DNA of 32,000 bases from Dickeya solani IPO 2222 (lineage in GTDB: Bacteria; Pseudomonadota; Gammaproteobacteria; Enterobacterales; Enterobacteriaceae), in contig NZ_CP015137.1 in the NCBI RefSeq assembly GCF_001644705.1, positions 4,770,001 through 4,802,000 on the forward strand. Direction: 5' to 3'. Of the stretch, positions 2,319 to 32,000 are shown piece after piece. Numbering within the stretch: position 1 is the first letter of the stretch; every line of letters starts with the position of its first letter. The position numbers and the translations under genes are program-made. The notes under the pieces were generated by a model, which saw only the letters and a program-made list of their open reading frames with translations, ran no database searches and was not told the origin of the DNA.

Positions 2319-2713
2319 GGGGGTTCCCCTCACATTATCCATTGTTTTTTCTTTCAGAAAAAATTGTAGCCTGTTGTCGTGACGGTGCTTACCGTAACTT
2401 TTCACGCAAAAAAAATCATCGATGAATAAAATCCATCGATCTCTTTCGATTAAATTTAAAACGATAACTGGCTACTATCCCTCTTTGCTCAGTTTCTTCC
2501 CCACATTAGGGTTCGCCTCTTTCATGCAAATTATCGGGCAGCATCAACAGAATAGCAAAATGCAGACGAGGAGGAAGACCTGTCGCCAAGATTTTCTAAG
2601 ATTCCTGGATTTCCATAAAAAATAGGGGAAATCGCAAGTGGTTAATTATCTTAATAGATCGTTATTCCCAATCGTCAATGCAAAGTTGATAACTTATTAC
2701 TATAAAAATGTTC

Positions 2714-2959
2714 TTATTTACGACCTCTCATAACTGATAGATCAGCGGATACGTTTTCCTGATTGGTTAAATACCGATAAAAGACTTTCTCTTTAAGACA
2801 ATTGGCGCGTAAAACCGAAATAACAATTACACCTACCGGCGTTAATTCGATGCCAAATTCATTCTGACCCGACGCAGAAATGCGCAGAAAAACAGGCTGC
2901 TGTTCGTTCACTCGCTTTATGTCGGACAACATCGGACTGTTCGCACGGAGCAAATGCAT
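2714..2959 (-). CDS. doubtful small hypothetical ORF in AT-rich spacer
   Basis: Part of the 122-codon ORF 2714..3082. The 3082 start lies inside the icd terminator stem, so an internal ATG (2959 or 2932) would be needed. There is no SD before either ATG, no recognisable family, and the composition is atypically AT-rich. Listed only because an annotator might call it. Confidence 0.15.
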   Translation of the reverse strand: MHLLRANSPMLSDIKRVNEQQPVFLRISASGQNEFGIELTPVGVIVISVLRANCLKEKVFYRYLTNQENVSADLSVMRGRK

Positions 2960-3076
2960 TAAAAAAGAGAAGAGAAAGTAAAGTGATAGTACAAAAATGC
3001 GGAACAGCAAGCCTAAAGACTCACAATTAATGCGGAATAGTACGTCAGAAAAACGGCAAACGCCGCCAGAGAACAA

Positions 3077-3104
3077 CCTCACGGAAGCCAGGGCCGCCGT
3101 GAGG
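3077..3104 (-). terminator. candidate rho-independent terminator of icd
   Basis: Stem CCTCACGG (3077-3084) pairs with CCGTGAGG (3097-3104) around a 12-nt loop, 17 nt after the icd stop. On the minus strand it is followed by TTGTTCTCT, a weak U-tract. Confidence 0.45.
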
Positions 3105-3121: not shown

Positions 3122-4375
3122 TTACATATTGCTGATGATGTCTTGGGCAAACTCGCTACATTTACGCAGCGTGGCGCCTTCCATCAGCCGCTCAAAGTCA
3201 TAGGTGACGGTCTTGTTCTTGATCGCGCCTTCCACACCTTTCACGATCAGGTCGGCAGCTTCAAACCACTGCAGATGACGCAGCATCATTTCAGCGGACA
3301 GGATCACGGAACCCGGGTTCACTTTATCCTGGCCGGCATACTTCGGCGCCGTGCCGTGAGTGGCTTCGAATAGCGCACATTCGTCACCGATGTTGGCGCC
3401 CGGCGCGATACCGATCCCGCCTACCTGCGCCGCCAGCGCATCGGAAATATAGTCACCGTTCAGGTTCATACAGGCGATGACATCGTACTCTGCCGGACGC
3501 AGCAGAATCTGCTGCAGGAAGGCGTCGGCAATCACATCTTTAACGATGATGTCTTTGCCGGTTTTCGGGTTCTTGATTTTCACCCACGGCCCGCCATCAA
3601 TCAGCTCACCGCCGAACTCCTCGCGAGCCAACTGGTAACCCCAGTCTTTGAACGCGCCTTCGGTGAATTTCATGATGTTGCCTTTGTGCACCAGCGTCAA
3701 AGAATCGCGATCATTGGTGATGGCGTATTCGATCGCAGCACGAACCAGACGCTTGGTCCCTTCTTCAGAACAGGGCTTCACACCGATACCGCACTGCTGC
3801 GGGAAACGGATTTTCTTCACGCCCATTTCATCTTGCAGGAACTTGATTACTTTGTCCGCCTCCGGCGTACCGGCTTTCCACTCAATACCGGCATAAATGT
3901 CTTCGGCGTTTTCGCGGAAAATGACCATGTCGGTCAGTTCGGGATGTTTAACCGGGCTTGGCGTACCTTCGTAATAGCGAACCGGACGCAGACAAACGTA
4001 CAGATCCAGTTGCTGGCGCAACGCCACGTTCAGGGAACGGATACCGCCACCTACCGGCGTGGTCAGCGGCCCTTTAATGGCGACACGGTATTCGCGGATC
4101 AGATCCAGCGTTTCATCCGGCAACCACACATCTTGACCATACACCTGAGTGGATTTCTCACCGGTGTAAATTTCCATCCAGGAAATTTTGCGCTTGCCCT
4201 GGTAAGCTTTGTTTACCGCGGCATCGACAACGTTAATCATGGCTGGCGTCACATCGACACCGATACCGTCGCCTTCGATAAACGGAATGATCGGATTAGC
4301 CGGCACGACCAGTTTACCCTGAGCGTCAACCGTGATTTTCTGCCCTTCTGCCGGTACAACTACTTTACTTTCCAT
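3122..4375 (-). CDS. icd: isocitrate dehydrogenase (NADP-dependent)
   Basis: 417 aa, near-collinear with E. coli Icd as recalled ([13 protein letters not shown]..., [65 protein letters not shown], ending SEF...II.NM). Confidence 0.98.
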
Positions 4376-17447: not shown

Positions 17448-17675
17448 TTAACATTTTTCCAGAATCAAAATCTGCGCTTCGCCTTTGCGCACGCTGATCG
17501 CCGCGCCGCGCAGACGCAGCTCAATCGGGTCGCCCAACGGCGCCACGCGCGACACCGAAAACTCCACCCCCGGCGTAACCCCCAGCGCCAGCAGGCGCTT
17601 GCGGTAATCCGCCGATCCTTTCTGAAACCCCAGCACACGCCACTGTGTGCCCACCGCCAATGCTTCCAGTGTCAT
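17448..17675 (-). CDS. feoA: ferrous iron transport protein FeoA
   Basis: 75 aa. [30 protein letters not shown] matches E. coli FeoA ([30 protein letters not shown]). It ends 22 nt upstream of feoB. Confidence 0.93.
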   Translation of the reverse strand: [75 protein letters not shown]

Positions 17676-17716: not shown

Positions 17717-17850
17717 ACCGTTGTTATAAATCGATAGTTATAAATCGATAGTTATAAATCGATAGTTATAAATCGATAGTTATAAATCGATAGTTATAAA
17801 CCGATGGTTATAACCCTGTGGTTATAAACCGATTGTTATGCTGATTATTG
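17717..17850. repeat. 14-bp tandem array (TCGATAGTTATAAA; 5 perfect plus ~4 degenerate units) between the two feoA genes
   Basis: Perfect units at 17731-17744, 17745-17758, 17759-17772, 17773-17786 and 17787-17800. They are flanked by ACCGTTGTTATAAA, CCGATGGTTATAA, CCCTGTGGTTATAAA, CCGATTGTTATG and CTGATTATTG. The array occupies ~125 of the 169 intergenic bp. Confidence 0.95.
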
Positions 17851-18084
17851 CTGCGGCGACACCCACACCTGTTTGCCCATCTCCCAGTTGATCGCCACCC
17901 GGCTGTCGCCGGAGGCCAGCATCAACGGCTGATTGGCGTCGCGCTGAATCACGCGCACCTGCCCACCGACGCGGATGCCAAGCTCGGTCAGCCGCTGCTG
18001 GTATTCGCCCGTCGAACGAATTCGCGCCACCACGGCATTCACGTTAAGGGGAAGATCAAGCAGCGTTTGAAGACTCAGGGCCAT
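17845..18084 (-). CDS. FeoA-domain protein (second, upstream paralogue)
   Basis: From ATG 18084 the 79-aa product is MALSLQTLLDLPLNVNAVVARIRSTGEYQQRLTELGIRVGGQVRVIQRDANQPLMLASGDSRVAINWEMGKQVWV. It shows the FeoA SH3-like pattern (L..L..G....V..I......RL.ELGI..G..V.V). AAGGAA lies 7 nt upstream. The ORF-track start at 18129 has no SD. Confidence 0.75.
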   Translation of the reverse strand: MALSLQTLLDLPLNVNAVVARIRSTGEYQQRLTELGIRVGGQVRVIQRDANQPLMLASGDSRVAINWEMGKQVWVSPQQ

Positions 18085-18153
18085 ACAACATTCCTTCCAC
18101 TGACTGTGCGCAGCACACCGCCAACCCACTGACAGTCATGCAGCAAAGCAAGT

Positions 18154-18477: not shown

Positions 18478-18768
18478 TTATTTATAAAATAAACTATTTG
18501 AGTCTATTATTTTACATACTTCATTTTTTATTGTATCTATCCGTTGCTCACCATATAAGCCTCGTTCAACCATCATTCTAAAATCATCCATGATATAATT
18601 ATATAAATTTGGAAAGCCATTACGCTGTTTGCCCTCAAGTATTCTTAAAGACTTAAGGATCCCTTTACAACACAAGTCACTACCTTCTTCTTCAACAACA
18701 TATTCAATGACCTTATTTAACAGATTTACAAGCCTTGATATATCCTGCACATCATTTTCTGTTAACAT
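18478..18768 (-). CDS. cdiI: putative CdiI immunity protein (no recognisable family)
   Basis: 96-aa ORF starting 4 nt after the cdiA stop (minus strand ...AAAGGTGATTAGATG, with the SD AAGGTGA inside the cdiA 3' end). This is the canonical position for the cognate immunity gene. The DNA is very AT-rich (hand count 9/60 G+C for 18481-18540). The sequence looks helical and acidic. Confidence 0.7.
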   Translation of the reverse strand: MLTENDVQDISRLVNLLNKVIEYVVEEEGSDLCCKGILKSLRILEGKQRNGFPNLYNYIMDDFRMMVERGLYGEQRIDTIKNEVCKIIDSNSLFYK

Positions 18769-18772
18769 CTAA

Positions 18773-21700
18773 TCACCTTTTATTTGTTACTTGTTCAGGA
18801 AACGATTTTCTAAATTCATCATAGGTATAGACTTTACCGGTCTTACCGTCACGCACCGATTTTATCCATTCTGATGAATAATTCCGCGGCATCAAAATTT
18901 GATCAGCCCCACCATCATATTTGGGCTTTTCACTACCCGGTTTCTGTTCACCAACTATGCCTATATTAATTTTTGTATTTTCTGGAATTTCAATCTGTGC
19001 TTCAAACTGTGAGGTACTCCATTTCTTATATACAGCAGTTTCATTGCGTCCCGCATTTTGTTCAGTTGTAGCATACCCACCATCAAGTTTCGCTTGATCT
19101 GAGCTACCACCAAACTTCCTGTAAACTAAAACGGGTTCATTGGTAATTACCGTCTGATAGTTACCATCTTTAAAAGATTTTTTAATATCCCCCGGTAAAC
19201 TATCTTGCTGAGTTAATGTTACTTTACTGTCTATCTTCGTACCGGCAGTAGCAGGTGCACCTTGCTCCACTTTTTTAGCTACATTACCAGCAACCGATAA
19301 TTCGCCAGCTTCTGCCGCAACACCTTTAAACCCGGCCAGCGTACTCACAATCCCATGTAGTTGCATCGCCGTATCATACTGCGACGCCACTTCATCCCAG
19401 CCTTTTCCGGTTGATTTGGCTATGGCGGTAATGGCTGCATCGCGTGTGATGCTGCCTTCATCCAGCCCTTTCAGGATGGCGCTTGCATTAGCCGCGTCCT
19501 GCGGGTACAGGTCTTTGTAGATCAGACGGTAGCTCGCCGCACTCTCGCCATAACTATTCAGCGCCTGCTGCGCCTTTGCCACCAGTGCCGAGCAGGCCCC
19601 GCCTGATTTGTTGCCCTGCGTACAAATATCGTGGATGGCCTGATCGCGATCTTTGTCCAGTTTGCGGGTATCCGCCAGCTCTTTGGCTTCGTCCGCCGTC
19701 AGTGTTCCGGCTTTCTCCTTACGCTCCAGATCGGCCTTCGTCTGAGCTTCTGTGGCGCTGAGATAGTTATTCTCCACCGCATTACGCCCGGTTTGCGCGC
19801 CTGTCGCCGCACCGGCGGTGTTACCCGACGCAATCCCCGACGCCAGACCGGCCGCCAGTGACGCCAGCGCGCTTACCGACTGTTTTTCCGCTTCCGTCAG
19901 GTCGCTGGTGTCCCGCCCTGAGTACAGCTCCTTCATGATCAGCAGCCGCGCCGTCAGTTCACCGCCAGCCGCGCCCACCGCTCCCGCCACCGCATCCTTA
20001 CCGGACAGTTGCGCCACCACCGCGCCCATCAGCGCATGCCCCATCGCGTTGGCCGCGATGTCCGATGCCGTGGCTTTACTCTCGTCCGCCGGCATCGTCA
20101 CGCCTTTCACCAACTGCGCCAGATACGGCGCCGATGCACCGGCCAGCGCCTGCTGCAGGTTGCCGCCGCCCGCCAGCGCCTGAATCGCCGCCGTCGCCGC
20201 CTGTGTCGCCCGTTGCAGATCGCTGCCCGTGCCGTAAGACTGCATCACCGCCTTGTAAGCCGGCGTTTCCGTCAGGTCTTTCTTATATTTATCCCAGTCT
20301 TTTTCGGATGCGTTATCCGGCGGCCGTTTCACATCGCCTTTGGCTTCCGCCGCCCGCACCGCGCGGATTTCGCCTTCGGTACGGACAACGTCCATCACCT
20401 GCGCGCCCAGCTCACCGACCATCTGCGCCGTCTGCAGGCGTTTCTGCTCTTTCTCCTTGTCAAAGATCGAGCTCAGTGCATTATTGGCGTGCTCCACATC
20501 CCGGCTCAGGCCGGCAATATCCTGCTGCTGACCGGCCTGATTACGGATAATCAGCGCCCCGTCGCTCACCGCCGCGTAGGTGGTGCTGCCGGCATTGCCG
20601 CCCCGACCCATCGACATCAGTGCCGAAGGCGCGGTCAGCGCGGCCGATTTCAGCATATCCGACATACTCAGCGACGGACTGGCGCTCAGTCCGATACCGC
20701 TGTGCGACACCGAAAACTCGGCCCGGTTGTCGATATTGCTGAAGCCCAGCGTGCCGGTATCCAGCCGGTTTTTATCCGCGCTGGCGGTCGAACCAATCAC
20801 CGCGCCGTCCAGCTGCGTGTGGTTGCCGACGTTGATGTCGTAACCGCCCTTGCCGGCAAACAGCCCGGTCTGCTGCTGCACGCTGTCAAAACTGCTGTGC
20901 ATTTTGTCCTGGCTGGCGCTGAGATAGCCGCTGCCGGTCATGCTGCCAAAGGTAAAGCTACCGCCCGCCGACACGCTGGTCTGCTTCGAGTCATAGCGGT
21001 TACTGTCCTGCTGGCTTTTCAGCAGCAGGTCGCCGCCTACGTTTGCCACAATGCGCTCGCCGCTGACCTGCGCCCCGGTCAGGCGCGTGTCGCCGCCGCT
21101 GGTCAGGACAATCTGCTGCCCGGCATCCACCGTGGTTTCCGACCAGCTGTTGCCGTTGCCGAGTTCACGGCCTTTGGCCGCGTTGACGTTGGCGAAGACG
21201 CTGAATCCGGCACCGCTATTGCTCAGGCCGAAACTGACGCCAATATTCCCGCCGCTGCTGCTGTTGCTGCCGGTCATCGACTCGGTGTTGCGTGCCGATA
21301 GCAGATTAATCGCCCGGGACGCATTCAGCTCCACATTGTTGGCCGCTTTCAGCTGGCTGCCGACGGCGGTGATATCGCCCTGACGCGCCACCACGCTAAT
21401 ATCATGGCCCGCATTTAGCGTCGAGGCAAAACTCTGCGACTGTTCGCTGGTCTGGCTGCTGCTGGAGCGCTGCGCCCCCAGCGACACGCTGATGCCGACA
21501 AACGACGACGCCCCCTGATTGTTGGTATCAATCTGGGTGCCCTGATAAGCCTGATACCCCGACAGCGCCGCCTTCATCCCCTGCAGCGCCTGCAGACGAC
21601 TGTCGCTCTGTTCCCGCACCGCCTGAACCGCCTGCACCGCACTATTCAGCGCCGATCCCACCACACCCGATAGCGTTACCGTCAATCCGGCGGTTTTTTG

Positions 21701-24700
21701 CTCCATCTGGCGCGACTGTTTACGGGTATCGTAGCCCGGATCAATCGTCACGCTGTTGCCCGTCACCTGAATGTCCCGGGCCGCAATCACATCGGTAGCC
21801 GCCATCGACACCGCCTGCCCGGCATTCAGGCGCACCGACCCACTGGTGGTGCCCAGCGTGCTCACGCTCTGGCTCTGGGTAGTCGCCTTATCGTCCTGTT
21901 TCTGGCTCATCGACGTACTGCCGATAGTAAACCCGATGCCGCCCCCGCTGAACACCCCGCTCTTCTTGCGGCTGTGCTCCTCGTAGTTACGGTAGGTCTC
22001 CACGCTCGCCGCGGTAGTGATGTCATGCCCCGCCGTCAGCGTCACCTCCCCGTCCGCCGCCACCGCCGAGCCCTGCACCCCGAGGTCATGCCCCGCCGTC
22101 AGCGCCACGCTGTCCCCCGACAGCAGCGTCCCCTTCTCCGTCGTCTGCTGCGTGTCACGCAGCGTGTGCGTGGTGGTCTTCGACAGGAACCCCTTCTTCA
22201 CCGTGGTTTCTTCAAAAAAATCATGCCGGCTTTCCGTCGCCGACAGCAGGCTCAGGTCGCGCCCCGCCTGCGCCGTCAGCGCGCCGCGCGTCTCCGCCTG
22301 CGCCCCCTGCAGCGTCAGGTCCTGACCCGCCCGCAGGCTCAGCCCCTCCCCGGCGTTCAGCACCGTCCCCTGCTGACTCACCGTCTGCTGCCAGTCCAGA
22401 TGCCGTTTCCACGCGTTCGAACTGAACTGATCCTCACCGGCCGACAGCAGGCTCAGGTCACGCCCCGCCGACAGTCCCAGCGTCCCCGCCGCGCTCAGTT
22501 GCGCCGCCGTGCTGCTCAGGTCGCGACCGGCGCTCAGGCTCAGGTCGCCCCCGCTGGCCACCGTGCTCTGCACCAGCCCCTGACTGCGCCGCTCGCTGGC
22601 GCCGCCATCCTGACGCACCGTGTCCGTCACCGTGGTCAGCGCACTCAGCCGGATGTCGTTGCCCGCCGCCAACTGCAGCGGCCCGCCCGCGCTCAGTTGT
22701 GCCCCGTTCAGCGCGATATCGTACCCCGCCTGCAGCGTCAGCCCGCCTTGCGCCGTTATCAGCCCGGCCTGCCCGATATCGGTGCGCGTCAGCGACCCGC
22801 TGCCCCGCCCGTCCTGCGCCGCCGTCTGCCACTGGTTACGGGTGGTGGTGTTGGTGATGTCGCCGCTGACGCTCGCCAGCGTCACCGTGTTGCCCTGAAT
22901 GGTGGCGCTGCGGTTGGTCAGGTTGCCCAGCGCCACCAGATTCAGCGCGCCGCCCGCGTTCAACAGCCCGCCCTCACTGTTGGTCAGGTTACCTCCGCTG
23001 GCGACAGCAAGGGCGTCCTGCGCCGTCACCGTGCTACCGCGGTTGTCGATGTCCCCGCCCGCGCTCAGGCTCACGCTGTTCGCCACGATGCGGCTGCCCT
23101 GCAGGTTGCTCCTGTCCGCCTGCGCCAGATACAGCTTCGGCGCCAGCACCGTCTGCCCGCCGACGCTAATGTTCTCCCACCACACCAGGCTGTGGCTCAG
23201 CCCCGCCACCTGCGCCGACGTCAGGCTCATCCCCAGTTGCAGACCCAGCCGGCTTTTCTCCGCCGCCGCGTTGTCCATCAGCTGCTGCATCTGCGCCAGG
23301 TCCGACCCCACGCCGTTCAGGTAGCGCTGCCCGGTCTGGCTCAGCACCGCGTTGCTGATATAGCGGGTGTCAAACGCCGCGTCCCCCAGAAAGCGGTAGT
23401 CGTGCTCCGCGTCCAGATTCAGCTTGCCCAGCAGGTAGGACGACCCCAGCACCTGCGTCGGGTCGGTCAGCGTCGGGCGGGTTTCCACCGGCACCGTGGT
23501 GCCCGGCGTCTGCCCCAGCAGGCCGCGCAGGTCGTCGAACAGGCGGTTGTCCACCTGACCAAGCTGGCTCAGCGTCGGGTTGGTGCGTATCAGGTAGCGG
23601 CTGTCGCCGGCGGTATCCGCCACGAACAGCCCGTTCTGGCTGGTCGGCAGCGGGTAGTCGGTCAGCGACGGGCTGCCCAGTTGCTGCAGCCCCTGGGTCA
23701 GTGCCGCCTGCAACTGGCCGAAGGACAGCGCTGCCAGCGGTGTCAGCGCGGTAGCCGTCACCGGCGAGGCGCCGGGCGCCGTCGCCTGAAGATGCCCGCC
23801 CGCCAGGCCGTCAGGCAGGCTGAGCACGGTGGCTGTTACCGGTGTTCCCCCCGCTATCGCCCCGGCCGTCAGCGCGGTGTCGGCCATCCCGGCGACCGGG
23901 GTGCCGCCGGCAGGCAGGTCGCCGGTGCGCGTCACCGTGGTGTAACCACCGGCCAGACCGCCGGCCTGCCCGGCCAGCGCCACGTTGCCGCTGCCGTCCG
24001 GTAGGGAGGTGGGGCTGACGCTGCCCGCCGCACCATTCAGCCCGCGGTCAGCCTGTGCGTCCACCGGGGTGAGTGCATTCACGCCAGCCATTGTCGGCGT
24101 CGCTATCACCGGGATAAAGCCGCCGCTGCCCGGCTGTAAATTGGTGTTGCTGATATTCTGGGAGAAGCTGGCGGTTATCGAGCCGCCCGCCTGAATGGTC
24201 GCGGCGTAGGTTTGGCCGGGGGTGGATATGATTTGTCGGTCTTTTAATACATATCTAAGCCTATCTCTATCAAACCGACTTCTATCGCGAAAATATATCT
24301 TATATTCGCCAAGATGCTCCGAATACTCGTAATCATTCCACCTGTTATCTCTTTTAGCTTTTTCTTGTAGCCACCCTATAGGTGCCATACCTAGCAATAA
24401 TTCATCATCGCCAACTTCGTATTCATATACTAATGACTCAGATATAGAGCCCACCTGATAGGAAGCATTTTTCAAAACGTTTCCTGTCATAGAAATATTT
24501 TTTTTAGACGATATTACGGATGCATCATTAATTAATAAAGCGGATGCAATATTAATATTGCCTGATGATAGAATATTAGCCCCTCCCCCATTAGCAGTTA
24601 TTTTTATATCTTTAGATGCATATGAAAATATTGCTGTAGATTTTTCTTTACTAACAGGAAATGGGAAAAAATATATTTCATCAAGGTTTGGACCATCTTC

Positions 24701-27700
24701 TCTACTTGGATTAGAGTTAGCCTCATAAGTTGCAAGCTCACCATCTTTAAACCAATCAATAGGAATATAGATCGTCGTCCCGCCCGCCCATGAGGGCACC
24801 TCCGCCGCCGTACTGCTGCTCTCGGTGACCGTCAGCCCCTCCCGCTGGTTGGTCAGCGTCCCGGTGCGTACCGTGATATCCCCCCGCTGCGTCTCGATGG
24901 TGCCCGAACTGTTCAGCACGCTGCTGCTGGCATTGCCTGCCGCGTCACGCTGTATCCACAGGCTGTCTCCCGCCAGGATATTCCCGAACCGGTTCACCAG
25001 CGCCGCCGACAGCAGCTGCAGGTCGCCCCCGCCGTACAGCAGGCCGCCGTTCTCTATCAGCCCGCCCGCCTGCACCAGCAGGTCGCCCGCCGTCCCCACA
25101 AAACCCCGGTTGACGATGTTGCCGGTCGCCAGCAGGCGCAGCGGCCCGCCGCCCTGGATACTGCCGCTCTCCGCCTGGCTGATAGCCGCCGCCGACAGCG
25201 TGCTGTTGCCGCCGCCCGCCACGATGCGACCCTGCTGCGTCAGCGTGCCGGTGCTCGTCACCGTCACCCCGTTGCCCTGCAGCGTCCCCGCCTGCACCAG
25301 GTCCCCGGTCACGGCCAGCGTCAGCTGGCCCCCCGCCGCCAGCGCGCGCGTCAGGGTGAACGGGCCGCCAATGTCCGCCCGCAGGTCGCCCAGCGCCGCC
25401 AGCTGGCCGTCCTGCGTCAGTTGCCCGGTGCGCAGCTGCAGCCCGCCCGCGCTGTACAGCCGCGCCCCGTCCGCGTTGTTGAGGCTGGCCGCCTGCAGCG
25501 CCAGCCGCGTCAGCCCCAGCAGCGTGCCCCGGTTGTCCAGCGCGCCGTCGGTGGTGATGTCCAGCTGCCCCGCCTGCACCGTGCCGTGGTTGGTCCACTG
25601 CGGCAGGTGCAGCGTCAGCCCGTTCTGCGCCTGCAGCGTGCCGCTGTTGTCCAGCTGCGCGGTGGTCAGCGTCAGGTCCTGCCCCTGCACCCAGCCGGCG
25701 TTGGTCAGTTGTGTCGCGCCCAGCGTCAGTTGTCCGCCCGACAGCAGCTGCCCGCCGCTCTGGTTGTCCAGCAGGGTGCCGCCCTGCACCGTCAGCCCGC
25801 TGCGGCCCTGTATCTGCCCGCCGTTGCTGACCGTCGCGCCGCCCAGCGACACCGTCCCGCCGAGCAGCGTCGCCCCGGCGGTGTTCTCCAGTTGCTCATC
25901 CAGCGTGACGTTCAGCTGCCCGGCGCCGGTAATGCCGCCCTGATTGCGCAGGCGCGCGGCACGCAGCGTCACGTCCTGCGCCTGCAGGTGTCCGGCCTGG
26001 TCTATCGTCGCCGCACTCAGGCTGAACGCGCCGTTGCCCCCCACCTGGCTGCCCGCCTCGCCCACATAGGTGCCGGTCAGTTGGATGTTGCCGTCGTCCA
26101 GCCCCAGCAGCGTGCCCAGGTTGCGCAGCCGGTCCGCGGTCAGCGTCAGCCGGCCCGACTGCCACAGCCCCTGGTTCAGCAGCGTGCCGGTGGCGAGACT
26201 GCCGGCGCCGCCGCTCAGCAGCCGTCCGCCGGCCTGATTGGTGACAGCGTCACTGAACTGCGCGTCAAAGCCGCCCAGCGCGGTCAGCGTCCCGCCGTTG
26301 TCGAACTGCCGCCCGCGCAGCGTCGCCATGCCCTGCGTGGTCAGTTGCCCCAGGTTGGTCAGGCTGGCGGCCTCCAGTTGCAGCCCGCGCTGCCCCAGCA
26401 GCGTGCCGTGGTTGGTCAATGACGTACCGCTCACGTTCAGCACGCCGGCCTGCCACAGCCCGGCGTTGTCGGCGTTATCGATGGCCAGCGTCGCTGTGCC
26501 GCCGCTCAGCAGTTGGCTGTCGGCATTGCCGGTATAGCGGGACACCCCGTTCAGCGTCAGCGCTGACGTGCCCTGCATTCTGCCTGCGTTGGTGACCGTG
26601 TCCGCCCGCAGCGTCAGCGTATCTGCCTGCACGCTGCCCGCGTTATCCAGCTGTTGCGCCGTCACGCCGGCCGTGCCGTTGCCCAGCAGCGACCCGCCGG
26701 CGGTGTTGGTCAGTTGCCCCCGGCTGGTCACGTCCAGCTGCGACAGCCCCACCAGCCGCCCGCCGTTGGTCAGCGTGCCGGTGGTCAGTTGCAGCCGGTC
26801 GCCGCCGATGTCGCCCTGCTGCGTCACCGTGTCCGCCGTCAGCGTCACCGCGCCGCTGCCCAGCACCTGACTGCCCGCCCCGCCGGTATAGCCCTGCGTC
26901 AGGGTCAGCGTGATGCCGTCCGTGCCCAGCAGCGCGCCGCCGTTGTCCAGCGACGCCGCGCTCAGCAGCAGGTTTTTCCCCTGCCACTGTCCCCGGCTGT
27001 TCACCGACCCGGCCTGCACCTGCCAGTCGCCGTTGCTCAGCAGACGCCCGTCCGCGCCCACACGCAGCCCGCCGCCCAGTGTCAGCACGCCGCCCTGCTC
27101 CGCCAGCAGCGTGCCGCGGTTGTCCAGACTGTCGCCGGTCAGCAGCAGGGTGCGGCTGTCCAGCCGGCCCGCGTTGGTCATGTCGCCGGCCGCCAGCGAC
27201 AGCGCGCCGCTGGCCGCCAGCGTGCCCTGATTATCCAGCCGGCGACCGGTTATCCGGCTGTCACCGCCGGCGGTCAGCGTACCGGTGTTGGTCAGACTGC
27301 CCGGACTGGCTGCCTGTACATCCTGCGCCAGTTGCTGTACCGCCCGCAGCATGGCGCGCAGCGGGTCACTGCCGGTGGCCGGCAGTGTGACCGCCAGGTC
27401 GCCGTCACTGTGTATCTGCCCGCCGTTGCGCAGGCTGTCGGCGGTCAGCTGCAGGGTGCCGGCCTGCCACTCACCGTCATTCTCTGCCGTCGCCGCGTTC
27501 AGCACCGCCGCCCCCTGCGTCAGCAGTTTGCCGGTGGCGGTGTTGGTCAGCGCGCCGCCGGCCGTCAGCGTCAGCGCCGACAGCCCCAGCAGTTGCCCGG
27601 CGTTGTGGACCGTGCCGGCCGTGGCGTGAAGACGGTCACCCTGCCAGCGGCCCTGGTTGTCCAGCGCAGCGGCCGTCAGGCGGCTTTCACCGTTGCTCAG

Positions 27701-30700
27701 CCACTGCCCGGATGTCTGATTGCGTGCCGTACCGGCTATCGCCAGCGTCAGCGCGTCCATTCCCAGCAGCGTGCCGCCGTTGTCCAGCGTCTCCGCCGTC
27801 AGGCTCAGTGTCTGCCCTTCCAGCCGCCCGTGGTTGGTCAGGGTACCGGGTAAGGTCACCGTCAGCCCCTCGCGTCCGCTCAGCAGCCCGCCATTGTCCA
27901 GCGCGGCGGCGCGGGCCATCAGCGTCTGCCCCGCAAGCGTGCCCGTGTTGCCCAGCGCTCCGCGCAGCTCCAGCGTCAGCGCCTCAGCGGCGCTCAGCCG
28001 GCCGCCGTTGCTCAGCGTGTCGCCGGTGATCGTCACCGTCTTCCCCTGCCAGCGACCGCCGTCACCCACCACGCCGTTGCCGCTCAGCGTCAGCGCCCCG
28101 TCGCTGTACAGACTGCCGCCGCCCGCGTAGTCCCCCGTCAGCGTCAGCGCCCCGCCCGACGCCAGCTGTCCCTCGTTGTGCAGGTCTGCCCCGGCAACCG
28201 TCAGGTTGCCCAGTCCCGACACCGTGCCCCGGTTGTCCAGCCCGCCCAGCGTCAGCGTGGTGTCGCCGTTCGCCGCCAGCGTGCCGCTGTTGGTCAGCGT
28301 CCCCGCCGCAGAGAGCGTCGCCGTCAGCGCGCCGTCGCTCTGTATCCGCCCGCCGTTGCGCAGGCTGCCCGCCGTCAGCAACAGGTTGCCGGCCTGCCAC
28401 TCGCCGTCATTCTCTGCCGTCGCCGCGTTCAGCACCGCCGCCCCCTGCGTCAGCAGTTTGCCGGTGGCGGTGTTGGTCAGGGTGCCGCCGGCCGTCAGCG
28501 TCAACGCCGACAGCCCCAGCAGTTGCCCGGCGTTGCGGACCGTGCCGGCCGTGGCCTCAAGGCGCGCGCCCTGCCACTGACCCTGGTTGTCCAGCTCAGC
28601 GGCCGTCAGGCGGCTTTCGCCGTTGCTCAGCCACTGCCCCGACGCCTGATTGCGTGCCGTCCCGGCTATCGCCAGCGTCAGCGCGTCCATTCCCAGCAGC
28701 GTGCCGCCGTTGTCCAGCATGTCCGCCGTCAGGCTCAGCGTGCGGCTCTCCAGCCGGCCGTGGCTGGTCAGCGCGCCGGTCGTCGTCACCGTCAGCGAAT
28801 CCAGCCCGGTGACCGTACCGCTGTTGGTCAGTTGCCCGCCGCCAATAGCGACCGTGTGACCCTGCCAGCGCCCGCCGTCGTTGGCGAGGGTCGCGCCGCG
28901 CAGCGTCAGCGCCGCATCGCTGTACAGGCTGCCCGCGCCGGCGTAATGGCCGGTCAGCGTCAGCGCGCCCTGCGCCGCCAGTTGCCCGGCGTTGTCCAGG
29001 TCCGTTCCGGTGACCGTCAGGTCGCCCCGCACCGACACCGCCCCCCGGTTATCCAGCCCGCCCAGCGTCAGCGTGGTGTCGCCGTTCGCCGCCAGCGTGC
29101 CGGTGTTGGTCAGTACGCCCGCCGGGGACAGCGCCACATCAAGCGCGCCGTCGCTCTGTATCCGCCCGCCGTTGCGCAGGCCGTCCGCCGTCAGCCGCAG
29201 GCGGCCGCTCTGCCACTCGCCGTCGTTGTCCACCGTCGCCGCCGTCAGCACCGCCGCCCCCTGCGTCAGCAGTGTGCCGGTGGCGGTGTTGGCCAGCGCG
29301 CCGTGCGCCGTCAGCGTCAGCGCCGACAGCCCCAGCAGTTGCCCGGCGTTGCGGATGCGGGCCGCCGTGGCGGTCAGGCTGTCGCCCTGCCACTGCCCCT
29401 GGTTGTCCAGCGTGCCGGCCGTCAGGCGGCTCACGCCCTGACTCAGCCACCGGCCCGACGCCTGATTGCGCGCCGTCCCGGCTATCGCCAGCGTCAGCGC
29501 GTCCATCCCCAGCAGCGTGCCGCCGTTGTCCAGACTGTCCGCCGTCAGGCTCAACGTCTTCCCTTCCAGCCGCCCGCGGTTGGTCAGGGTGCCGGGTAAG
29601 GTCACCGTCAGCGAATCCAGACCAGTGATATTGCCGGTGTTGGCCAGTTGCTGACCGATGAGCGCGATACGCCCGCCGACCAGCGTGCCCTGATTGTCAA
29701 GCTGCTGCCCGGTGATATCTATTGTACTGCCCTGCCAGCGCCCGCCGGCGTTGGCGATATCGGCGCCGCGCAGCGTCAGCGCCGCCTCACTGTACAGACT
29801 GCCGCCGCCCGCGTAGTCCCCCGTCAGCGTCAGCGCGCCGCGCGACGCCAGCTGCCCGGCGTTGCCCAGCGTCGTGCCCTGCACCGTCAGCCCGCCCAGC
29901 GCCGACACCGCGCCCCGGTTGTCCAGCCCGCCCAGCGTCAGCGTGGTGTCGCCGTTCGCCGCCAGCGTGCCGCGGTTGGTCAGCATCCCTGTCGCAGAGA
30001 GTGCCGCCGTCAGCGCGCCGTCACTCTGTATCCGCCCGCCGTTGCGCAGGCTGTCCGCCGTCAGCAGCAGATTGCCGGCCTGCCATTCACCGTCATTCTC
30101 TGCCGCCGCCGCGTTCAGCACCGCCGCCCCCTGCGTCAGCAGTTTTCCGGTGGCGGTGTTGGTCAGCGCGCCGTCGGCCGTCAGTGTCACCGCCTGCCGC
30201 CCCTGCAGCGTGCCGCTGTTGTCCAGCCCGTCCGCCGTCACGCTCAGCGTGTCGCCCGCCATCACTCCCCGGTTGGCCGTCTGCCCCGCCTGTACCGTCA
30301 GCGCGCCCCCGGCCAGCAGCGACCCGCTATTGTCCAGTTGCGTCTGCGCCTGCACCGTCAGCGTCCCGTCCGCCGACAGCGTGCCGCCGTTGCTCAGCGT
30401 GTCCGCCGTCAGCGTCACCTGCCGCCCGCTCACCGTGCCCCGGTTGTCCAGCTCAGCGGCCGTCAGGCGGCTTTCACCGTTGCTCAGCCACTGCCCCGAC
30501 GCCTGATTGCGCGCCGTCCCGGCTATCGCCAGCGTCAGCGCGTCCATTCCCAGCAGCGTGCCGCCATTGTCCAGCGTGTCCGCCGTCAGACCGAGCGCCC
30601 GTCCTTCCAGCCGCCCGCCGTTGCTCAGCGCCCCGGCCAGCGTCACCGTCAGCCCGTCGCGCCCGCTCAGCAGCCCGCCGTTGTCCAGCGACGCCGCCCG

Positions 30701-32000
30701 TACCGTGGCGGTCTGCCCCGCCAGCGTCCCCGTATTGCCCAGCGCTCCGCGCAGCTCAAGCGTCAGCGCCTCAGCGGCGTTCAGCTGGCCGCCGTTGCTC
30801 AGCGTGCCGCCGGTGACCGTCACCGTCTTCCCCTGCCAGCGGCCGCCCTCGCCCACCACGCCGTTGCCGCGCAGCGTCAGCGCCCCGTCGCTGTAAACAC
30901 GACCCGCCCCCGCGTAGTCCCCGCTCAGCGTCAGCGCGTCGCCCCCCGCCAGTTGCCCGCCGTTGTCCAGCGTCGCGCCCTGCACCGTCAGCCGGCCCAG
31001 CGCCGACACCGTGCCCCGGTTATCCAGCCCGCCCAGCGTCAGTACCGTGTCGCCGTTCGCCGCCAGCGTGCCGCTGTTGCTCAGCCCGCCCGCCAGCATC
31101 ACCGCCAGCGACCCGTCACTCTGTATCTGACCGCCGTTGCGCAGGCTGGCCGCCCCCACCGTCAGCCCGCCGCCCGCCAGCAGCGCGCCGTCCCACTCCA
31201 CCGTCTCCCGCCCGTCCAGCGTCAGGTCGCCCGTCGCCTGCCAGCGCCCCGCGCCGCTCACACGCCCGCCGCTGACCGTCACCGTCTGCGCCCCCGCCGC
31301 CCCGTCCAGCGTCAGCTGCCCCCCGGTCAGCGTCAGCGCGCTCCCCGCCTGCCAGGCTCCGCCCGACGCCTGGCTCACCGCCCCCGACGCCGTCAGGCTC
31401 ACCCGGTCGCCCGCCAGCTGCGCCTGGCCCAGCATCAGCTCCGCCCCGGTCAGCGTCAGACCGTACCCCGGCTGGATAACCCCGTCGTCGCGCACCCCGG
31501 CGCTCAGCTGTCCGCCCTGCGCCGTGATGCGCCCGGCGCTGTCCAGCGTCAGGTCCCGCCCCGCCCGCGTCCGGCTCTCCGTCAGCGTGATGCCCTGCTC
31601 ACCCCGCAGCCTGACCGTGCCCTGCGCCTGCTGGTTACCCTGCAGCGCCAGCGTCACGCCCTGCGCCGTCAGGTCGCCCTGCGCGATGGCGCTCCCCACC
31701 TGCAGCCGCCCGTTCGCCGACAGCTGAATGTCCCCCTGCCGCGCGCTCAGCCCGGCGGTGTTTACCCCCACTCCCTGCTCCGTCGACACCAGACTGATGC
31801 GGTTGGCGTACATCCCCCCCAGCGCCCCGGTGTCCAGCGCCAGCGCCGGCGACGGCCCCGCTCCCGCCTGCGCCGTCACCCGTCCGTCCGTGCCCACCCG
31901 GTTGGCCCCCAGCACCACCCGCACGTCCCGCGCGCTCAGCCCCGCCTGCAGGCTCGCCGTGCGCGCTATCAGCGCAAAATAGTCGCTCCCGCCGGCGTCC
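18773..32000 (-). CDS. cdiA: CdiA contact-dependent inhibition toxin/filamentous exoprotein, 5'-truncated by the window edge
   Basis: The reading frame is open from the window edge (no stop between 31924 and 31999), leaving 4408 codons visible. The order is the established CdiA one. FHA-1-type ~20-aa beta-helix repeats (..LTLTA..LDNGG.L..) come first. Next is a non-repetitive block at the RBD position, then a YP-type region (DYPLPTSQNGLFV, SRYLIRTNPTL, RFLGDAAFDTRYI). FHA-2-type repeats follow, then the pretoxin region ending GRNAVENN, then a 330-aa CT. The signal peptide, TPS domain and cdiB must lie beyond 32000. Confidence 0.95.
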   Translation of the reverse strand, partial: DAGGSDYFALIARTASLQAGLSARDVRVVLGANRVGTDGRVTAQAGAGPSPALALDTGALGGMYANRISLVSTEQGVGVNTAGLSARQGDIQLSANGRLQVGSAIAQGDLTAQGVTLALQGNQQAQGTVRLRGEQGITLTESRTRAGRDLTLDSAGRITAQGGQLSAGVRDDGVIQPGYGLTLTGAELMLGQAQLAGDRVSLTASGAVSQASGGAWQAGSALTLTGGQLTLDGAAGAQTVTVSGGRVSGAGRWQATGDLTLDGRETVEWDGALLAGGGLTVGAASLRNGGQIQSDGSLAVMLAGGLSNSGTLAANGDTVLTLGGLDNRGTVSALGRLTVQGATLDNGGQLAGGDALTLSGDYAGAGRVYSDGALTLRGNGVVGEGGRWQGKTVTVTGGTLSNGGQLNAAEALTLELRGALGNTGTLAGQTATVRAASLDNGGLLSGRDGLTVTLAGALSNGGRLEGRALGLTADTLDNGGTLLGMDALTLAIAGTARNQASGQWLSNGESRLTAAELDNRGTVSGRQVTLTADTLSNGGTLSADGTLTVQAQTQLDNSGSLLAGGALTVQAGQTANRGVMAGDTLSVTADGLDNSGTLQGRQAVTLTADGALTNTATGKLLTQGAAVLNAAAAENDGEWQAGNLLLTADSLRNGGRIQSDGALTAALSATGMLTNRGTLAANGDTTLTLGGLDNRGAVSALGGLTVQGTTLGNAGQLASRGALTLTGDYAGGGSLYSEAALTLRGADIANAGGRWQGSTIDITGQQLDNQGTLVGGRIALIGQQLANTGNITGLDSLTVTLPGTLTNRGRLEGKTLSLTADSLDNGGTLLGMDALTLAIAGTARNQASGRWLSQGVSRLTAGTLDNQGQWQGDSLTATAARIRNAGQLLGLSALTLTAHGALANTATGTLLTQGAAVLTAATVDNDGEWQSGRLRLTADGLRNGGRIQSDGALDVALSPAGVLTNTGTLAANGDTTLTLGGLDNRGAVSVRGDLTVTGTDLDNAGQLAAQGALTLTGHYAGAGSLYSDAALTLRGATLANDGGRWQGHTVAIGGGQLTNSGTVTGLDSLTVTTTGALTSHGRLESRTLSLTADMLDNGGTLLGMDALTLAIAGTARNQASGQWLSNGESRLTAAELDNQGQWQGARLEATAGTVRNAGQLLGLSALTLTAGGTLTNTATGKLLTQGAAVLNAATAENDGEWQAGNLLLTAGSLRNGGRIQSDGALTATLSAAGTLTNSGTLAANGDTTLTLGGLDNRGTVSGLGNLTVAGADLHNEGQLASGGALTLTGDYAGGGSLYSDGALTLSGNGVVGDGGRWQGKTVTITGDTLSNGGRLSAAEALTLELRGALGNTGTLAGQTLMARAAALDNGGLLSGREGLTVTLPGTLTNHGRLEGQTLSLTAETLDNGGTLLGMDALTLAIAGTARNQTSGQWLSNGESRLTAAALDNQGRWQGDRLHATAGTVHNAGQLLGLSALTLTAGGALTNTATGKLLTQGAAVLNAATAENDGEWQAGTLQLTADSLRNGGQIHSDGDLAVTLPATGSDPLRAMLRAVQQLAQDVQAASPGSLTNTGTLTAGGDSRITGRRLDNQGTLAASGALSLAAGDMTNAGRLDSRTLLLTGDSLDNRGTLLAEQGGVLTLGGGLRVGADGRLLSNGDWQVQAGSVNSRGQWQGKNLLLSAASLDNGGALLGTDGITLTLTQGYTGGAGSQVLGSGAVTLTADTVTQQGDIGGDRLQLTTGTLTNGGRLVGLSQLDVTSRGQLTNTAGGSLLGNGTAGVTAQQLDNAGSVQADTLTLRADTVTNAGRMQGTSALTLNGVSRYTGNADSQLLSGGTATLAIDNADNAGLWQAGVLNVSGTSLTNHGTLLGQRGLQLEAASLTNLGQLTTQGMATLRGRQFDNGGTLTALGGFDAQFSDAVTNQAGGRLLSGGAGSLATGTLLNQGLWQSGRLTLTADRLRNLGTLLGLDDGNIQLTGTYVGEAGSQVGGNGAFSLSAATIDQAGHLQAQDVTLRAARLRNQGGITGAGQLNVTLDEQLENTAGATLLGGTVSLGGATVSNGGQIQGRSGLTVQGGTLLDNQSGGQLLSGGQLTLGATQLTNAGWVQGQDLTLTTAQLDNSGTLQAQNGLTLHLPQWTNHGTVQAGQLDITTDGALDNRGTLLGLTRLALQAASLNNADGARLYSAGGLQLRTGQLTQDGQLAALGDLRADIGGPFTLTRALAAGGQLTLAVTGDLVQAGTLQGNGVTVTSTGTLTQQGRIVAGGGNSTLSAAAISQAESGSIQGGGPLRLLATGNIVNRGFVGTAGDLLVQAGGLIENGGLLYGGGDLQLLSAALVNRFGNILAGDSLWIQRDAAGNASSSVLNSSGTIETQRGDITVRTGTLTNQREGLTVTESSSTAAEVPSWAGGTTIYIPIDWFKDGELATYEANSNPSREDGPNLDEIYFFPFPVSKEKSTAIFSYASKDIKITANGGGANILSSGNINIASALLINDASVISSKKNISMTGNVLKNASYQVGSISESLVYEYEVGDDELLLGMAPIGWLQEKAKRDNRWNDYEYSEHLGEYKIYFRDRSRFDRDRLRYVLKDRQIISTPGQTYAATIQAGGSITASFSQNISNTNLQPGSGGFIPVIATPTMAGVNALTPVDAQADRGLNGAAGSVSPTSLPDGSGNVALAGQAGGLAGGYTTVTRTGDLPAGGTPVAGMADTALTAGAIAGGTPVTATVLSLPDGLAGGHLQATAPGASPVTATALTPLAALSFGQLQAALTQGLQQLGSPSLTDYPLPTSQNGLFVADTAGDSRYLIRTNPTLSQLGQVDNRLFDDLRGLLGQTPGTTVPVETRPTLTDPTQVLGSSYLLGKLNLDAEHDYRFLGDAAFDTRYISNAVLSQTGQRYLNGVGSDLAQMQQLMDNAAAEKSRLGLQLGMSLTSAQVAGLSHSLVWWENISVGGQTVLAPKLYLAQADRSNLQGSRIVANSVSLSAGGDIDNRGSTVTAQDALAVASGGNLTNSEGGLLNAGGALNLVALGNLTNRSATIQGNTVTLASVSGDITNTTTRNQWQTAAQDGRGSGSLTRTDIGQAGLITAQGGLTLQAGYDIALNGAQLSAGGPLQLAAGNDIRLSALTTVTDTVRQDGGASERRSQGLVQSTVASGGDLSLSAGRDLSSTAAQLSAAGTLGLSAGRDLSLLSAGEDQFSSNAWKRHLDWQQTVSQQGTVLNAGEGLSLRAGQDLTLQGAQAETRGALTAQAGRDLSLLSATESRHDFFEETTVKKGFLSKTTTHTLRDTQQTTEKGTLLSGDSVALTAGHDLGVQGSAVAADGEVTLTAGHDITTAASVETYRNYEEHSRKKSGVFSGGGIGFTIGSTSMSQKQDDKATTQSQSVSTLGTTSGSVRLNAGQAVSMAATDVIAARDIQVTGNSVTIDPGYDTRKQSRQMEQKTAGLTVTLSGVVGSALNSAVQAVQAVREQSDSRLQALQGMKAALSGYQAYQGTQIDTNNQGASSFVGISVSLGAQRSSSSQTSEQSQSFASTLNAGHDISVVARQGDITAVGSQLKAANNVELNASRAINLLSARNTESMTGSNSSSGGNIGVSFGLSNSGAGFSVFANVNAAKGRELGNGNSWSETTVDAGQQIVLTSGGDTRLTGAQVSGERIVANVGGDLLLKSQQDSNRYDSKQTSVSAGGSFTFGSMTGSGYLSASQDKMHSSFDSVQQQTGLFAGKGGYDINVGNHTQLDGAVIGSTASADKNRLDTGTLGFSNIDNRAEFSVSHSGIGLSASPSLSMSDMLKSAALTAPSALMSMGRGGNAGSTTYAAVSDGALIIRNQAGQQQDIAGLSRDVEHANNALSSIFDKEKEQKRLQTAQMVGELGAQVMDVVRTEGEIRAVRAAEAKGDVKRPPDNASEKDWDKYKKDLTETPAYKAVMQSYGTGSDLQRATQAATAAIQALAGGGNLQQALAGASAPYLAQLVKGVTMPADESKATASDIAANAMGHALMGAVVAQLSGKDAVAGAVGAAGGELTARLLIMKELYSGRDTSDLTEAEKQSVSALASLAAGLASGIASGNTAGAATGAQTGRNAVENNYLSATEAQTKADLERKEKAGTLTADEAKELADTRKLDKDRDQAIHDICTQGNKSGGACSALVAKAQQALNSYGESAASYRLIYKDLYPQDAANASAILKGLDEGSITRDAAITAIAKSTGKGWDEVASQYDTAMQLHGIVSTLAGFKGVAAEAGELSVAGNVAKKVEQGAPATAGTKIDSKVTLTQQDSLPGDIKKSFKDGNYQTVITNEPVLVYRKFGGSSDQAKLDGGYATTEQNAGRNETAVYKKWSTSQFEAQIEIPENTKINIGIVGEQKPGSEKPKYDGGADQILMPRNYSSEWIKSVRDGKTGKVYTYDEFRKSFPEQVTNKR
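18776..19240 (-). other. CdiA-CT C-terminal toxin domain (155 aa, unassigned family)
   Basis: TKIDSKVTLTQQDSLPGD...VLVYRKFGGSSDQAKLDGGYATTEQNAGRNETAV...IEIPENTKINIGIVGEQKPGSEKPKYDGGADQILMPRNY...FPEQVTNKR. It contains no His and no Cys. GC drops to ~32% (19/60 for 18961-19020). Confidence 0.7.
19241..19765 (-). other. CdiA-CT N-terminal (cytoplasm-entry/translocation) domain, 175 aa
   Basis: Lies directly after VENN: YLSATEAQTKADLERKEKAG...DICTQGNKSGGACSALVAKAQQ...MQLHGIVSTLAGFKG. It has a helical character and a single Cys pair (C-x9-C). The position matches the entry domain of the two-domain CdiA-CT model. Confidence 0.55.
19766..19777 (-). other. VENN motif (pretoxin/CT boundary)
   Basis: The plus strand GTTATTCTCCAC is the reverse complement of GTG GAG AAT AAC. 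Context is TGAQTGRNAVENNYLSATE. Confidence 0.95.
24225..24775 (-). other. low-GC cassette inside cdiA at the receptor-binding-domain position
   Basis: ~550 bp at ~25% GC (15/60 for 24481-24540) within a ~70% GC gene (44/60 for 25021-25080). It encodes IYIPIDWFKDGELATYEANSNPSREDG...NISMTGNVLKNASYQVGSISESLVYEYEVGDDELLLGMAPIGWLQEKAKRDNRWNDYEYSEHLGEYKIYFRDRSRFDRDRLRYVLKDRQIIS. Boundaries are approximate. Confidence 0.6.
27400..31150. repeat. four tandem higher-order repeats (periods 930, 816, 1041 bp) within the cdiA FHA-1 region
   Basis: The near-identical anchor ccggctatcgccagcgtcagcgcgtccat(t/c)cccagcagcgtgccgcc recurs four times. The antisense ORF peptide MRAVPAIASVSASIPSSVPPLS starts at 27720, 28650, 29466 and 30507. 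In the CdiA frame, LDNGGTLLGMDALTLAIAGTARNQ occurs 4 times. Outer boundaries are approximate. Confidence 0.9.

Follow-up and report, generated by a model that had tools for sequence, protein, structure and literature searches.

A variable AT-rich block in cdiA of Dickeya solani IPO 2222 as the probable specificity core of a class I-III-type receptor-binding domain

Background

Which part of a CdiA effector of contact-dependent growth inhibition (CDI) decides the choice of neighbours in a plant pathogen, and how does such a part evolve? The question is raised by a stretch of 32,000 nucleotides of Dickeya solani IPO 2222 (NZ_CP015137.1, positions 4,770,001 to 4,802,000), hereafter called the window, which carries on its reverse strand a very GC-rich open reading frame (ORF) identified below as cdiA, interrupted by one AT-rich block of about 550 nucleotides. 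CdiA receptor specificity sets which neighbours a strain kills or adheres to and, to our knowledge, receptors are known for four Escherichia coli classes only and for no plant pathogen such as Dickeya or Pectobacterium.

In E. coli the kind, position and modularity of the receptor-binding domain (RBD) are already established (PMC5371414, PMC8510554). The receptor-binding region was mapped to EC93 Ser1347-Tyr1636 (Ruhe 2017, PMC5371414), and the primers for the EC93/EC536 chimeras encode the junctions SLWVQKD|S and SSY|PLPSGNN (PMC5371414). A comparison of D. solani with D. dadantii reported CdiA proteins that are similar except for the toxin end (PMC4028081). In the literature searched we found no description of the Dickeya allele analysed here, of its allelic diversity or of the family-wide AT bias reported below. 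Based on sequence comparisons, we propose with good confidence that, in a Dickeya (solani-type) CDI system, this block forms the core of a CdiA RBD of the class I-III type and determines its specificity.

The cdiA gene and the composition of its AT-rich block

The initial annotation had taken the gene for cdiA, and a whole-protein scan agrees: the ORF product matches the Pfam families Fil_haemagg, Fil_haemagg_2, PT-VENN and DUF6862. Both filamentous hemagglutinin repeat types, FHA-1 and FHA-2, are present (Fil_haemagg E 7.7e-16, in six stretches; Fil_haemagg_2 E 1.4e-52), as is the VENN pretoxin region that marks a CdiA (PT-VENN E 2.6e-19, aa 4007-4056), where the motif AVENNYL is followed by DUF6862 and by an unassigned C-terminus. 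Judged by this architecture, the product is CdiA. Amino acid numbers refer to the visible part of the protein, since the ORF runs past the window end.

The mean GC content of positions 24225-24775 is 34.1%, compared with 70-73% in the surroundings, where GC at third codon positions (GC3) is about 0.9. The block had first been put at about 25% GC, a value that is reached in local 60-nt windows (22-28%) but not by the block as a whole; the two counts given with it, 15 G+C of 60 in 24481-24540 and 44 of 60 in 25021-25080, are exact. Its edges are as sharp as first described, the sliding GC profile showing a trough at 24230-24780 inside DNA of 65-80% GC, with the steepest GC steps within 23500-25500 at 24226 and 24773. 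At the three codon positions the GC fractions are 0.42/0.37/0.23 in the block, 0.67/0.54/0.89 just upstream and 0.71/0.56/0.91 in the FHA-1 repeats. In seven chromosomal genes nearby, GC is 0.54-0.59 and GC3 0.63-0.74, so that the block and its flanks depart from the genome in opposite directions. The sole other 552-nt stretch of the window that is equally AT-rich is 18481-19032, which holds the toxin tip and the putative cdiI.

The encoded residues also stand apart from the rest of the protein, with enrichment in Tyr (6.5 vs 1.0%), Lys (6.5 vs 1.2%), Ile (9.8 vs 2.2%), Glu (7.1 vs 2.2%), Phe and Asn. Asp (7.6 vs 5.5%) and Arg (5.4 vs 4.6%) are higher as well, in accordance with the abundance of Tyr, Asp, Arg and Lys noticed at the outset. 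The description of the block as non-repetitive holds only in part, since its central 65 residues (aa 2436-2500) resemble beta-helix rungs and weakly recall FHA repeats. The Gly/Ala/Thr/Pro-rich tract said to follow the block was found there (Table 1).

Position of the block and homology to mapped E. coli domains

To place the block relative to the E. coli domains, cdiA genes of this species were retrieved via published primer sequences and a flank-plus-region query; four loci with truncated or disrupted cdiA (L008, L011, L013, L014) were left out. An EC93-type gene (class I, L006) matches S1347, R1358, W1519, G1573, Y1636 and F1646 with a constant offset of +18, and an EC536-type gene (class II, L010) carries the primer-encoded junctions ASGGAN and ISDDWPLPSGN. 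Another gene (L012) represents a third E. coli class with related flanks, probably class III, and a class IV gene (L015) was recognised by the adjacent lysine-acyltransferase gene and the YYYRIRKKGKDKQG site. No match was obtained when 23500-25500 was compared by megablast with complete E. coli genomes.

In the window protein the boundary motifs are LWIQRD at aa 2322 and DYPLP at aa 2757, and the block (aa 2383-2566) lies between them, which is the RBD position that the initial annotation had assigned to it from domain order. We then used a hidden Markov model (HMM) of the block only, made of the block columns of 13 Dickeya alleles with the flanks excluded. This model scored 70.3 bits on class II (aa 1422-1550), 46.3 bits on class I (aa 1459-1530) and 46.4 bits on the third class (aa 1443-1527), in each case inside the receptor-binding region, compared with at most 12.5 bits on the FHA repeats of the same proteins. 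On class IV the best score was 7.3 bits, repeat-like, and BLASTP gave no match at E < 0.1. Position and homology to the mapped E. coli RBDs are thus directly supported.

Concerning the degree of this homology, BLASTP aligned 125 aa at 24.8% identity to class II (E 2e-7), with insert 2 unaligned and the Cys pair of insert 1 absent, and 89 aa at 25.8% to class I, in the central rungs only; neither close identity to EC536 across both inserts nor close identity to the EC93 RBD including the W1519 region was found, and there is no similarity to STEC4 Val1328-Pro1589 with its YYYRIRKKGK acylation site. Compared with the known RBD classes, the block is therefore related to classes I, II and the third one, but only at about 25% identity and without a match in class IV. 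The layout is common to E. coli and Dickeya and consists of an N-terminal flank, insert 1, two to three rungs, insert 2 and a C-terminal flank. In EC93, mutation of W1519 lowers the affinity for BamA (PMC13625785). In the class I RBD this residue falls into insert 2, the E. coli insert to which insert 2 of the window allele corresponds in position. On these comparisons the window block belongs to a known domain type, of which it is a new and deeply diverged allele; its resemblance to class II, at about 25% and in the scaffold only, does not predict binding to OmpC/OmpF.

Allelic diversity and history of the block

A word-indexed protein search with aa 2360-2620 returned 17 matches, every one from Dickeya, including a 100% identical D. 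solani fragment. In the alignment with 12 other Dickeya alleles the flanks are near-invariant (...LTNQREGLxVTESGSTAAxxPSWAGG on one side, GQTYAATIQAGGAITASFSQNISNT... on the other), and between them lies a hypervariable segment, the limits of which are those of the low-GC block. Block identity of the window allele to these 12 alleles is 22-55%; the closest is that of D. undicola 2B12 (55%), followed by D. dianthicola (46-47%), D. zeae WP_258570083.1 (39%) and the other Dickeya (22-30%). Nine columns are invariant in the block-only alignment, and all but two of them fall in the central segment. The block therefore varies between effectors while its flanks are conserved, as in a class I-III-type RBD.

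The initial annotation had predicted a homology break between alleles of related species, and we found it at exactly the block coordinates in the alignment, in DNA identity and in synonymous divergence. In comparison with D. undicola and D. oryzae, the flanks have a DNA identity of 85-95%, which drops to 20-68% across about 24270-24770. For the pair with D. undicola, the synonymous divergence (dS, Nei-Gojobori) rises from 0.21 in the flank to 1.33 in the block, and for that with D. oryzae from 0.36 to 2.44; it is about six-fold higher in the block, where the ratio of nonsynonymous to synonymous divergence (dN/dS) is 0.24-0.34. Since dS in the block exceeds that of the flanks at such a low dN/dS, the block appears to be an older lineage under purifying selection and, on these estimates, is not a recently and rapidly evolving patch. 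The polymorphism, the separate synonymous-site history and the purifying selection are, like the composition of the family described next, read directly from the alleles.

The GC dip is not peculiar to D. solani. Block and surroundings have GC 0.40 and 0.69 in D. oryzae, 0.37 and 0.57 in Brenneria, and 0.34 and 0.63 in Pectobacterium, and D. undicola shows the same dip; in E. coli the dip is absent from class I (0.59 vs 0.58) and mild in class II and the third class (0.50-0.51 vs 0.58-0.59). AT-richness is common to every Pectobacteriaceae allele examined; it therefore characterises the cassette family and is no sign of a recent import.

When 1.84 billion representative proteins were searched exhaustively with the profile, only 91 clusters proved related (44 at E <= 1e-10), with the matched stretch always central in proteins of 2000-5000 aa. 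Twenty of the 91 clusters were looked up. All are from Enterobacterales (Brenneria, Dickeya, Pectobacterium, Erwinia, Sodalis, Serratia, Kosakonia, Yersinia, Enterobacter/Cedecea, Enterobacillus and Morganella/Providencia), and, with two exceptions, they carry names of giant hemagglutinin-repeat (CdiA-like) proteins; no near-identical donor of the block was found in this search and among the 20 clusters looked up.

A separate observation concerns draft assemblies of Dickeya, in which the RBD block typically stands alone on a contig of about 0.8-1.3 kb (proteins P0001, P0003-P0011 and P0013), annotated as 'hemolysin BL-binding protein, partial' or 'filamentous hemagglutinin, partial'. The GC-rich repeats that flank the block are apparently where short-read assemblies break, and RBD diversity is hidden in this way.

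Architecture and proposed function

The anatomy of the region is reported in Table 1. The N-terminal RBD flank is near-invariant in 12 Dickeya alleles, common to E. coli classes I-III and predicted with an AlphaFold2 (AF2) local confidence (predicted local distance difference test, pLDDT) of 79-97. The rungs are the only part of the block that is conserved both across alleles and with E. coli classes I-III. The AF2 model of the region (26 sequences; pLDDT 80, predicted template modelling score, pTM, 0.66) is a beta-helix, in which the rungs reach pLDDT 89-98 and the inserts less: confidence is partly low in insert 1, and for insert 2, which is rich in Tyr, Arg, Lys and Asp, the model predicts a partly helical fold. 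Insert 1 of the window allele lacks the Cys pair found in many other alleles. The linker after the C-terminal flank is a second tract that varies between species (DNA identity 37-63%, vs 85-95% in the flanks) with GC still at 75%, and it is about 100 aa longer than the matching E. coli segment.

Table 1. Features of the cdi locus in the window, with the parts of the receptor-binding region
Feature	Positions	Strand	Residues of CdiA (visible part) and remarks
cdiA ORF	18773..32000	-	4383 aa visible; N-terminus cut at window end
FHA-1 beta-helix repeat region	24944..32000	-	aa 1 to ~2327; GC 0.73, GC3 0.91
Region equivalent to E. coli receptor-binding region	23654..24943	-	aa ~2328-2757; just past LWIQRD to Tyr of DYPLP
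N-terminal RBD flank, conserved, GC-rich	24779..24943	-	aa 2328-2382 (...NSSGTIETQRGDITVRTGTLTNQREGLTVTESSSTAAEVPSWAGG)
Variable AT-rich block (putative RBD core)	24227..24778	-	aa 2383-2566; GC 0.34, GC3 0.23
Variable insert 1	24620..24778	-	aa 2383-2435; aromatic and acidic
Central beta-helix rungs (predicted)	24425..24619	-	aa 2436-2500; invariant N, S, G, N, Y, G, Y; AF2 pLDDT 89-98
Variable insert 2	24227..24424	-	aa 2501-2566; 10/66 aromatic, 13/66 Lys/Arg, 15/66 Asp/Glu
C-terminal RBD flank, conserved	24065..24226	-	aa 2567-2620 (STPGQTYAATIQAGGSITASFSQNISNTNLQPGSGGF...); near-invariant in Dickeya, conserved with E. coli
Gly/Ala/Thr/Pro/Leu low-complexity linker, GC-rich	23675..24064	-	aa 2621-2750; A26 G24 L17 T16 P9 of 130
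YPLP motif, start of YP domain	23645..23656	-	corresponds to EC93 Tyr1636/Pro1637
Best Fil_haemagg_2 (FHA-2) match	20975..21481	-	aa 3482-3650
PT-VENN pretoxin domain	19757..19906	-	aa 4007-4056
CdiA-CT (C-terminal toxin part)	18776..19756	-	aa 4057-4383; DUF6862, then toxin region without family match; GC 0.47, falling to ~0.35 at tip
Candidate cdiI immunity gene	18478..18768	-	96 aa, AT-rich; assigned by position only

The following mechanism would fit this anatomy. Two to three beta-helix rungs would prolong the FHA-1 filament and bear two hypervariable excursions, inserts 1 and 2. By analogy with E. coli CdiA, the tip would bind an outer-membrane receptor of the neighbour cell and the secretion arrest imposed by the YP domain would then be lifted; FHA-2 would enter the target outer membrane and the VENN-delimited toxin would be delivered. 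The core is one among many deeply diverged allelic lineages set between near-identical flanks, and because the flanks are near-identical, it could be swapped by ordinary homologous recombination; exchange by this route is plausible. We infer receptor binding and the contact-making role of the inserts, as well as any cause of the AT bias, from these comparisons.

Concerning insert 1, a Cys pair (e.g. TPCNGHGACN) occurs in E. coli class II and in many Dickeya, Erwinia, Enterobacter and Kosakonia alleles, and Cys is missing from this insert in the window allele and in its D. dianthicola and D. zeae relatives. The pair of the other alleles suggests a disulfide-stapled loop.

Several points weigh against the assignment of the block as a specificity core. 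The RBD function rests on about 25% identity to the E. coli domains, and this homology is restricted to insert 1 and the rungs, insert 2 being unalignable. The alignment used for AF2 is shallow, with 26 sequences. The inserts, proposed as a binding face, lack a structural anchor, with no similar structure in the PDB: neither AF2 model had a PDB match at E < 0.1 in Foldseek (best E 0.15 and 1.5), the best beta-helix match was the two-partner secretion (TPS) domain of HpmA (E 0.9-1.5), and a PDB sequence search gave no match. No Pfam or NCBIfam model spans aa 2300-2800. The dS of the block is near saturation and comes from two pairs only, and a second cdi locus, a paralogue, may be the source of some of the Dickeya alleles instead of the orthologous locus. 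Finally, the window does not reach the N-terminus, cdiB or any cdiC.

Origin of the AT-rich composition and alternative explanations

Why the block is AT-rich is a question apart from what it does. One answer, to which we give a real chance, although one below even, is that the composition was made in place: diverged cores cannot recombine with one another, escape GC-biased gene conversion and drift towards an AT-biased mutational equilibrium, whereas the repeat-rich flanks are homogenised by frequent conversion and driven above genomic GC. This explanation concerns the cause of the composition only and is compatible with the RBD assignment. In this view AT-biased mutation is opposed by biased gene conversion, and the opposite deviations of block and flank GC3 from that of the genome are in agreement with such a balance. 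Furthermore, block GC3 is 0.23-0.37 in four genera despite flank GC3 of 0.67-0.91; the low dS of the flanks and the saturated dS of the block are consistent with homogenisation of the flanks; and AT-richness also marks the other hypervariable part of the gene, the C-terminal toxin part together with cdiI. Potential substrates of conversion exist in the long internal repeats of FHA-1. There are four long direct repeats in this part of the gene (27384-31165; start-to-start distance 816-1101 nt, identity 72-90%), which are large internal duplications of the filament. However, the linker also varies between species and keeps its high GC, the dip is absent or mild in the E. coli classes, and cassettes circulating in a shared pool, a possible alternative cause of the block composition, would produce the same pattern.

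A bolder proposal, somewhat more doubtful than the previous one, combines two claims: that RBD cores are old trans-species AT-rich cassettes (GC3 about 0.25-0.35, in genes that are otherwise above genomic GC), and that the receptor of the D. solani-type allele is none of BamA, OmpC/OmpF, Tsx and LPS (lipopolysaccharide) core. If the cassettes are such a set, the cores would offer a natural read-out of sequence barred from homologous gene conversion.

The initial annotation had supposed that the block was acquired as a foreign module. A one-off recent import, in which an AT-rich segment of a low-GC donor was put into a GC-rich Dickeya cdiA as a new targeting module, would explain the low GC3 against that of both the chromosomal neighbours and the flanks, the sharp edges, the roughly six-fold synonymous divergence and the AT-richness of the toxin/immunity end. 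Of the supposition, what stands is a history separate from that of the flanks. A foreign donor is not supported, and we consider the import improbable: a dip at this position is seen in all divergent alleles examined from Brenneria, Pectobacterium and three further Dickeya species, the nearest relative is just 55% identical and is itself a Dickeya cdiA, and the 20 clusters looked up hold no relative beyond CdiA-like proteins of Enterobacterales. Moreover, the block has its homologue in the resident E. coli-type RBD scaffold and not in an unrelated domain, and its edges carry neither direct or inverted repeats nor mobile-element signatures.

It could finally be argued that the block is no receptor-binding determinant at all, and serves as a tip spacer, as a part of the secretion arrest or as an AT-rich DNA element (an H-NS target or an internal promoter). 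AT-rich tracts are typical H-NS targets, and the long G/A/T/P linker after the block has no E. coli counterpart, so that the local architecture differs. Nevertheless, this explanation is very improbable. A dN/dS of 0.24-0.34 implies constraint at the protein level, the block contains invariant residues and beta-helix rungs modelled with high confidence, and its homology is specific to those E. coli segments for which BamA binding, or a redirection of binding to OmpC, has been demonstrated. As for a regulatory element, 23800-25200 contains no promoter-like and no terminator-like site (1.2 and 1.1 expected), and the secretion arrest of E. coli maps to the YP domain, downstream of the block. A diversity-generating retroelement or a shufflon was rejected on account of the large indels and saturated synonymous change, and of a window that shows no reverse transcriptase, invertase or silent cassette.

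Other features of the locus

The cdiA frame has no in-frame stop upstream of 31924 and is open to the window end, with the translation ...DAGGSDYFALIARTASLQAGLSARD. The GTG at 31924 is listed as the start of the ORF; the true start and the TPS domain, like cdiB, are outside the window. In homologous loci this part can be seen: in Brenneria (L016) an upstream ShlB/POTRA gene and a TPS domain are present, and in D. oryzae (L002) a 561-aa ORF stands directly upstream of cdiA with a gap of only 67 nt.

At the other end of the gene, the last ~260 residues of CdiA-CT, after DUF6862, have no match in Pfam, NCBIfam or the PDB. The candidate cdiI begins 5 nt past the cdiA stop and has no family match. 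The tip and the 96-aa ORF may be an uncharacterised toxin/immunity pair. Beyond this ORF are feoA/feoB, phoQ, purB, mnmA and icd, and because these genes stand downstream, the cdi locus is chromosomal. Two ORFs with a FeoA domain (17448-17675 and 17845-18129) lie upstream of feoB (15104-17425), all on the reverse strand and adjoining the cdi locus.

Two long antisense ORFs, 21698-24004 (+, 768 aa) and 24825-25943 (+, 372 aa), fall within GC-rich parts of cdiA and end where the AT-rich block begins on either side; both are artefacts of composition and not genes. Far from cdiA, an AT-rich islet (2400-3000, GC 0.37-0.39) separates a GAF-PAS-GGDEF-EAL gene (147-2405, -) from icd (3122-4375, -), and holds a 122-aa ORF (2714-3082, -) without a Pfam match.

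Implications

The putative specificity core, its conserved scaffold and the two variable inserts now have coordinates, which give junctions for chimera and receptor-hunting work. Dickeya alone holds at least a dozen deeply diverged alleles and, with the block usually on an orphan contig of about 1 kb in short-read assemblies of this genus, RBD diversity would be unseen in most draft genomes. The AT-rich core shared by the family is also a modest, clean puzzle in the evolution of genome composition.

Comparison with known receptor-binding domains

The most distant of the known systems is class IV. The RBD of CdiA-STEC4 (Val1328-Pro1589), which binds the LPS core and is lipidated by CdiC, occupies the same slot in the domain order as the window RBD, and its published basic, Tyr-rich patch near Lys1467 loosely recalls the composition of insert 2. 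However, the two have no sequence similarity (7 bits) and belong to different FHA-1 lineages, and, unlike class IV loci, the D. oryzae homologue has no space for cdiC between cdiB and cdiA. A genuine class IV RBD has been reported in another Dickeya protein, ACZ78808.1 of D. zeae Ech586.

Class I (CdiA-EC93, minimal construct Arg1358-Gly1573), which binds loops 4/6 of BamA, has the scaffold and position of the window RBD; the central rungs are homologous but neither insert can be aligned. Class II (CdiA-EC536 Ala1345-Trp1668), which binds OmpC/OmpF, has the same position and boundary motifs and gives the best profile score (HMM positions 3-121). It shares with the window RBD the N-terminal flank NSSGxIETxxGDIxxRTGxLxNQREG and the C-terminal flank GxTYxxxIQAGG.... 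Unlike class II, the window allele is without the TPCNGHGACN Cys pair of insert 1 and has a G/A/T/P linker of about 130 aa before YPLP.

The RBD cores of Pectobacteriaceae (Dickeya, Brenneria and Pectobacterium) agree with the window allele in flanks, AT-richness and architecture. Among them, the alleles of D. undicola, D. dianthicola and D. zeae also share the sub-type motifs ISESL[VI]YEYE ... DR[LF]xYVLKDRQ with the allele of D. solani.

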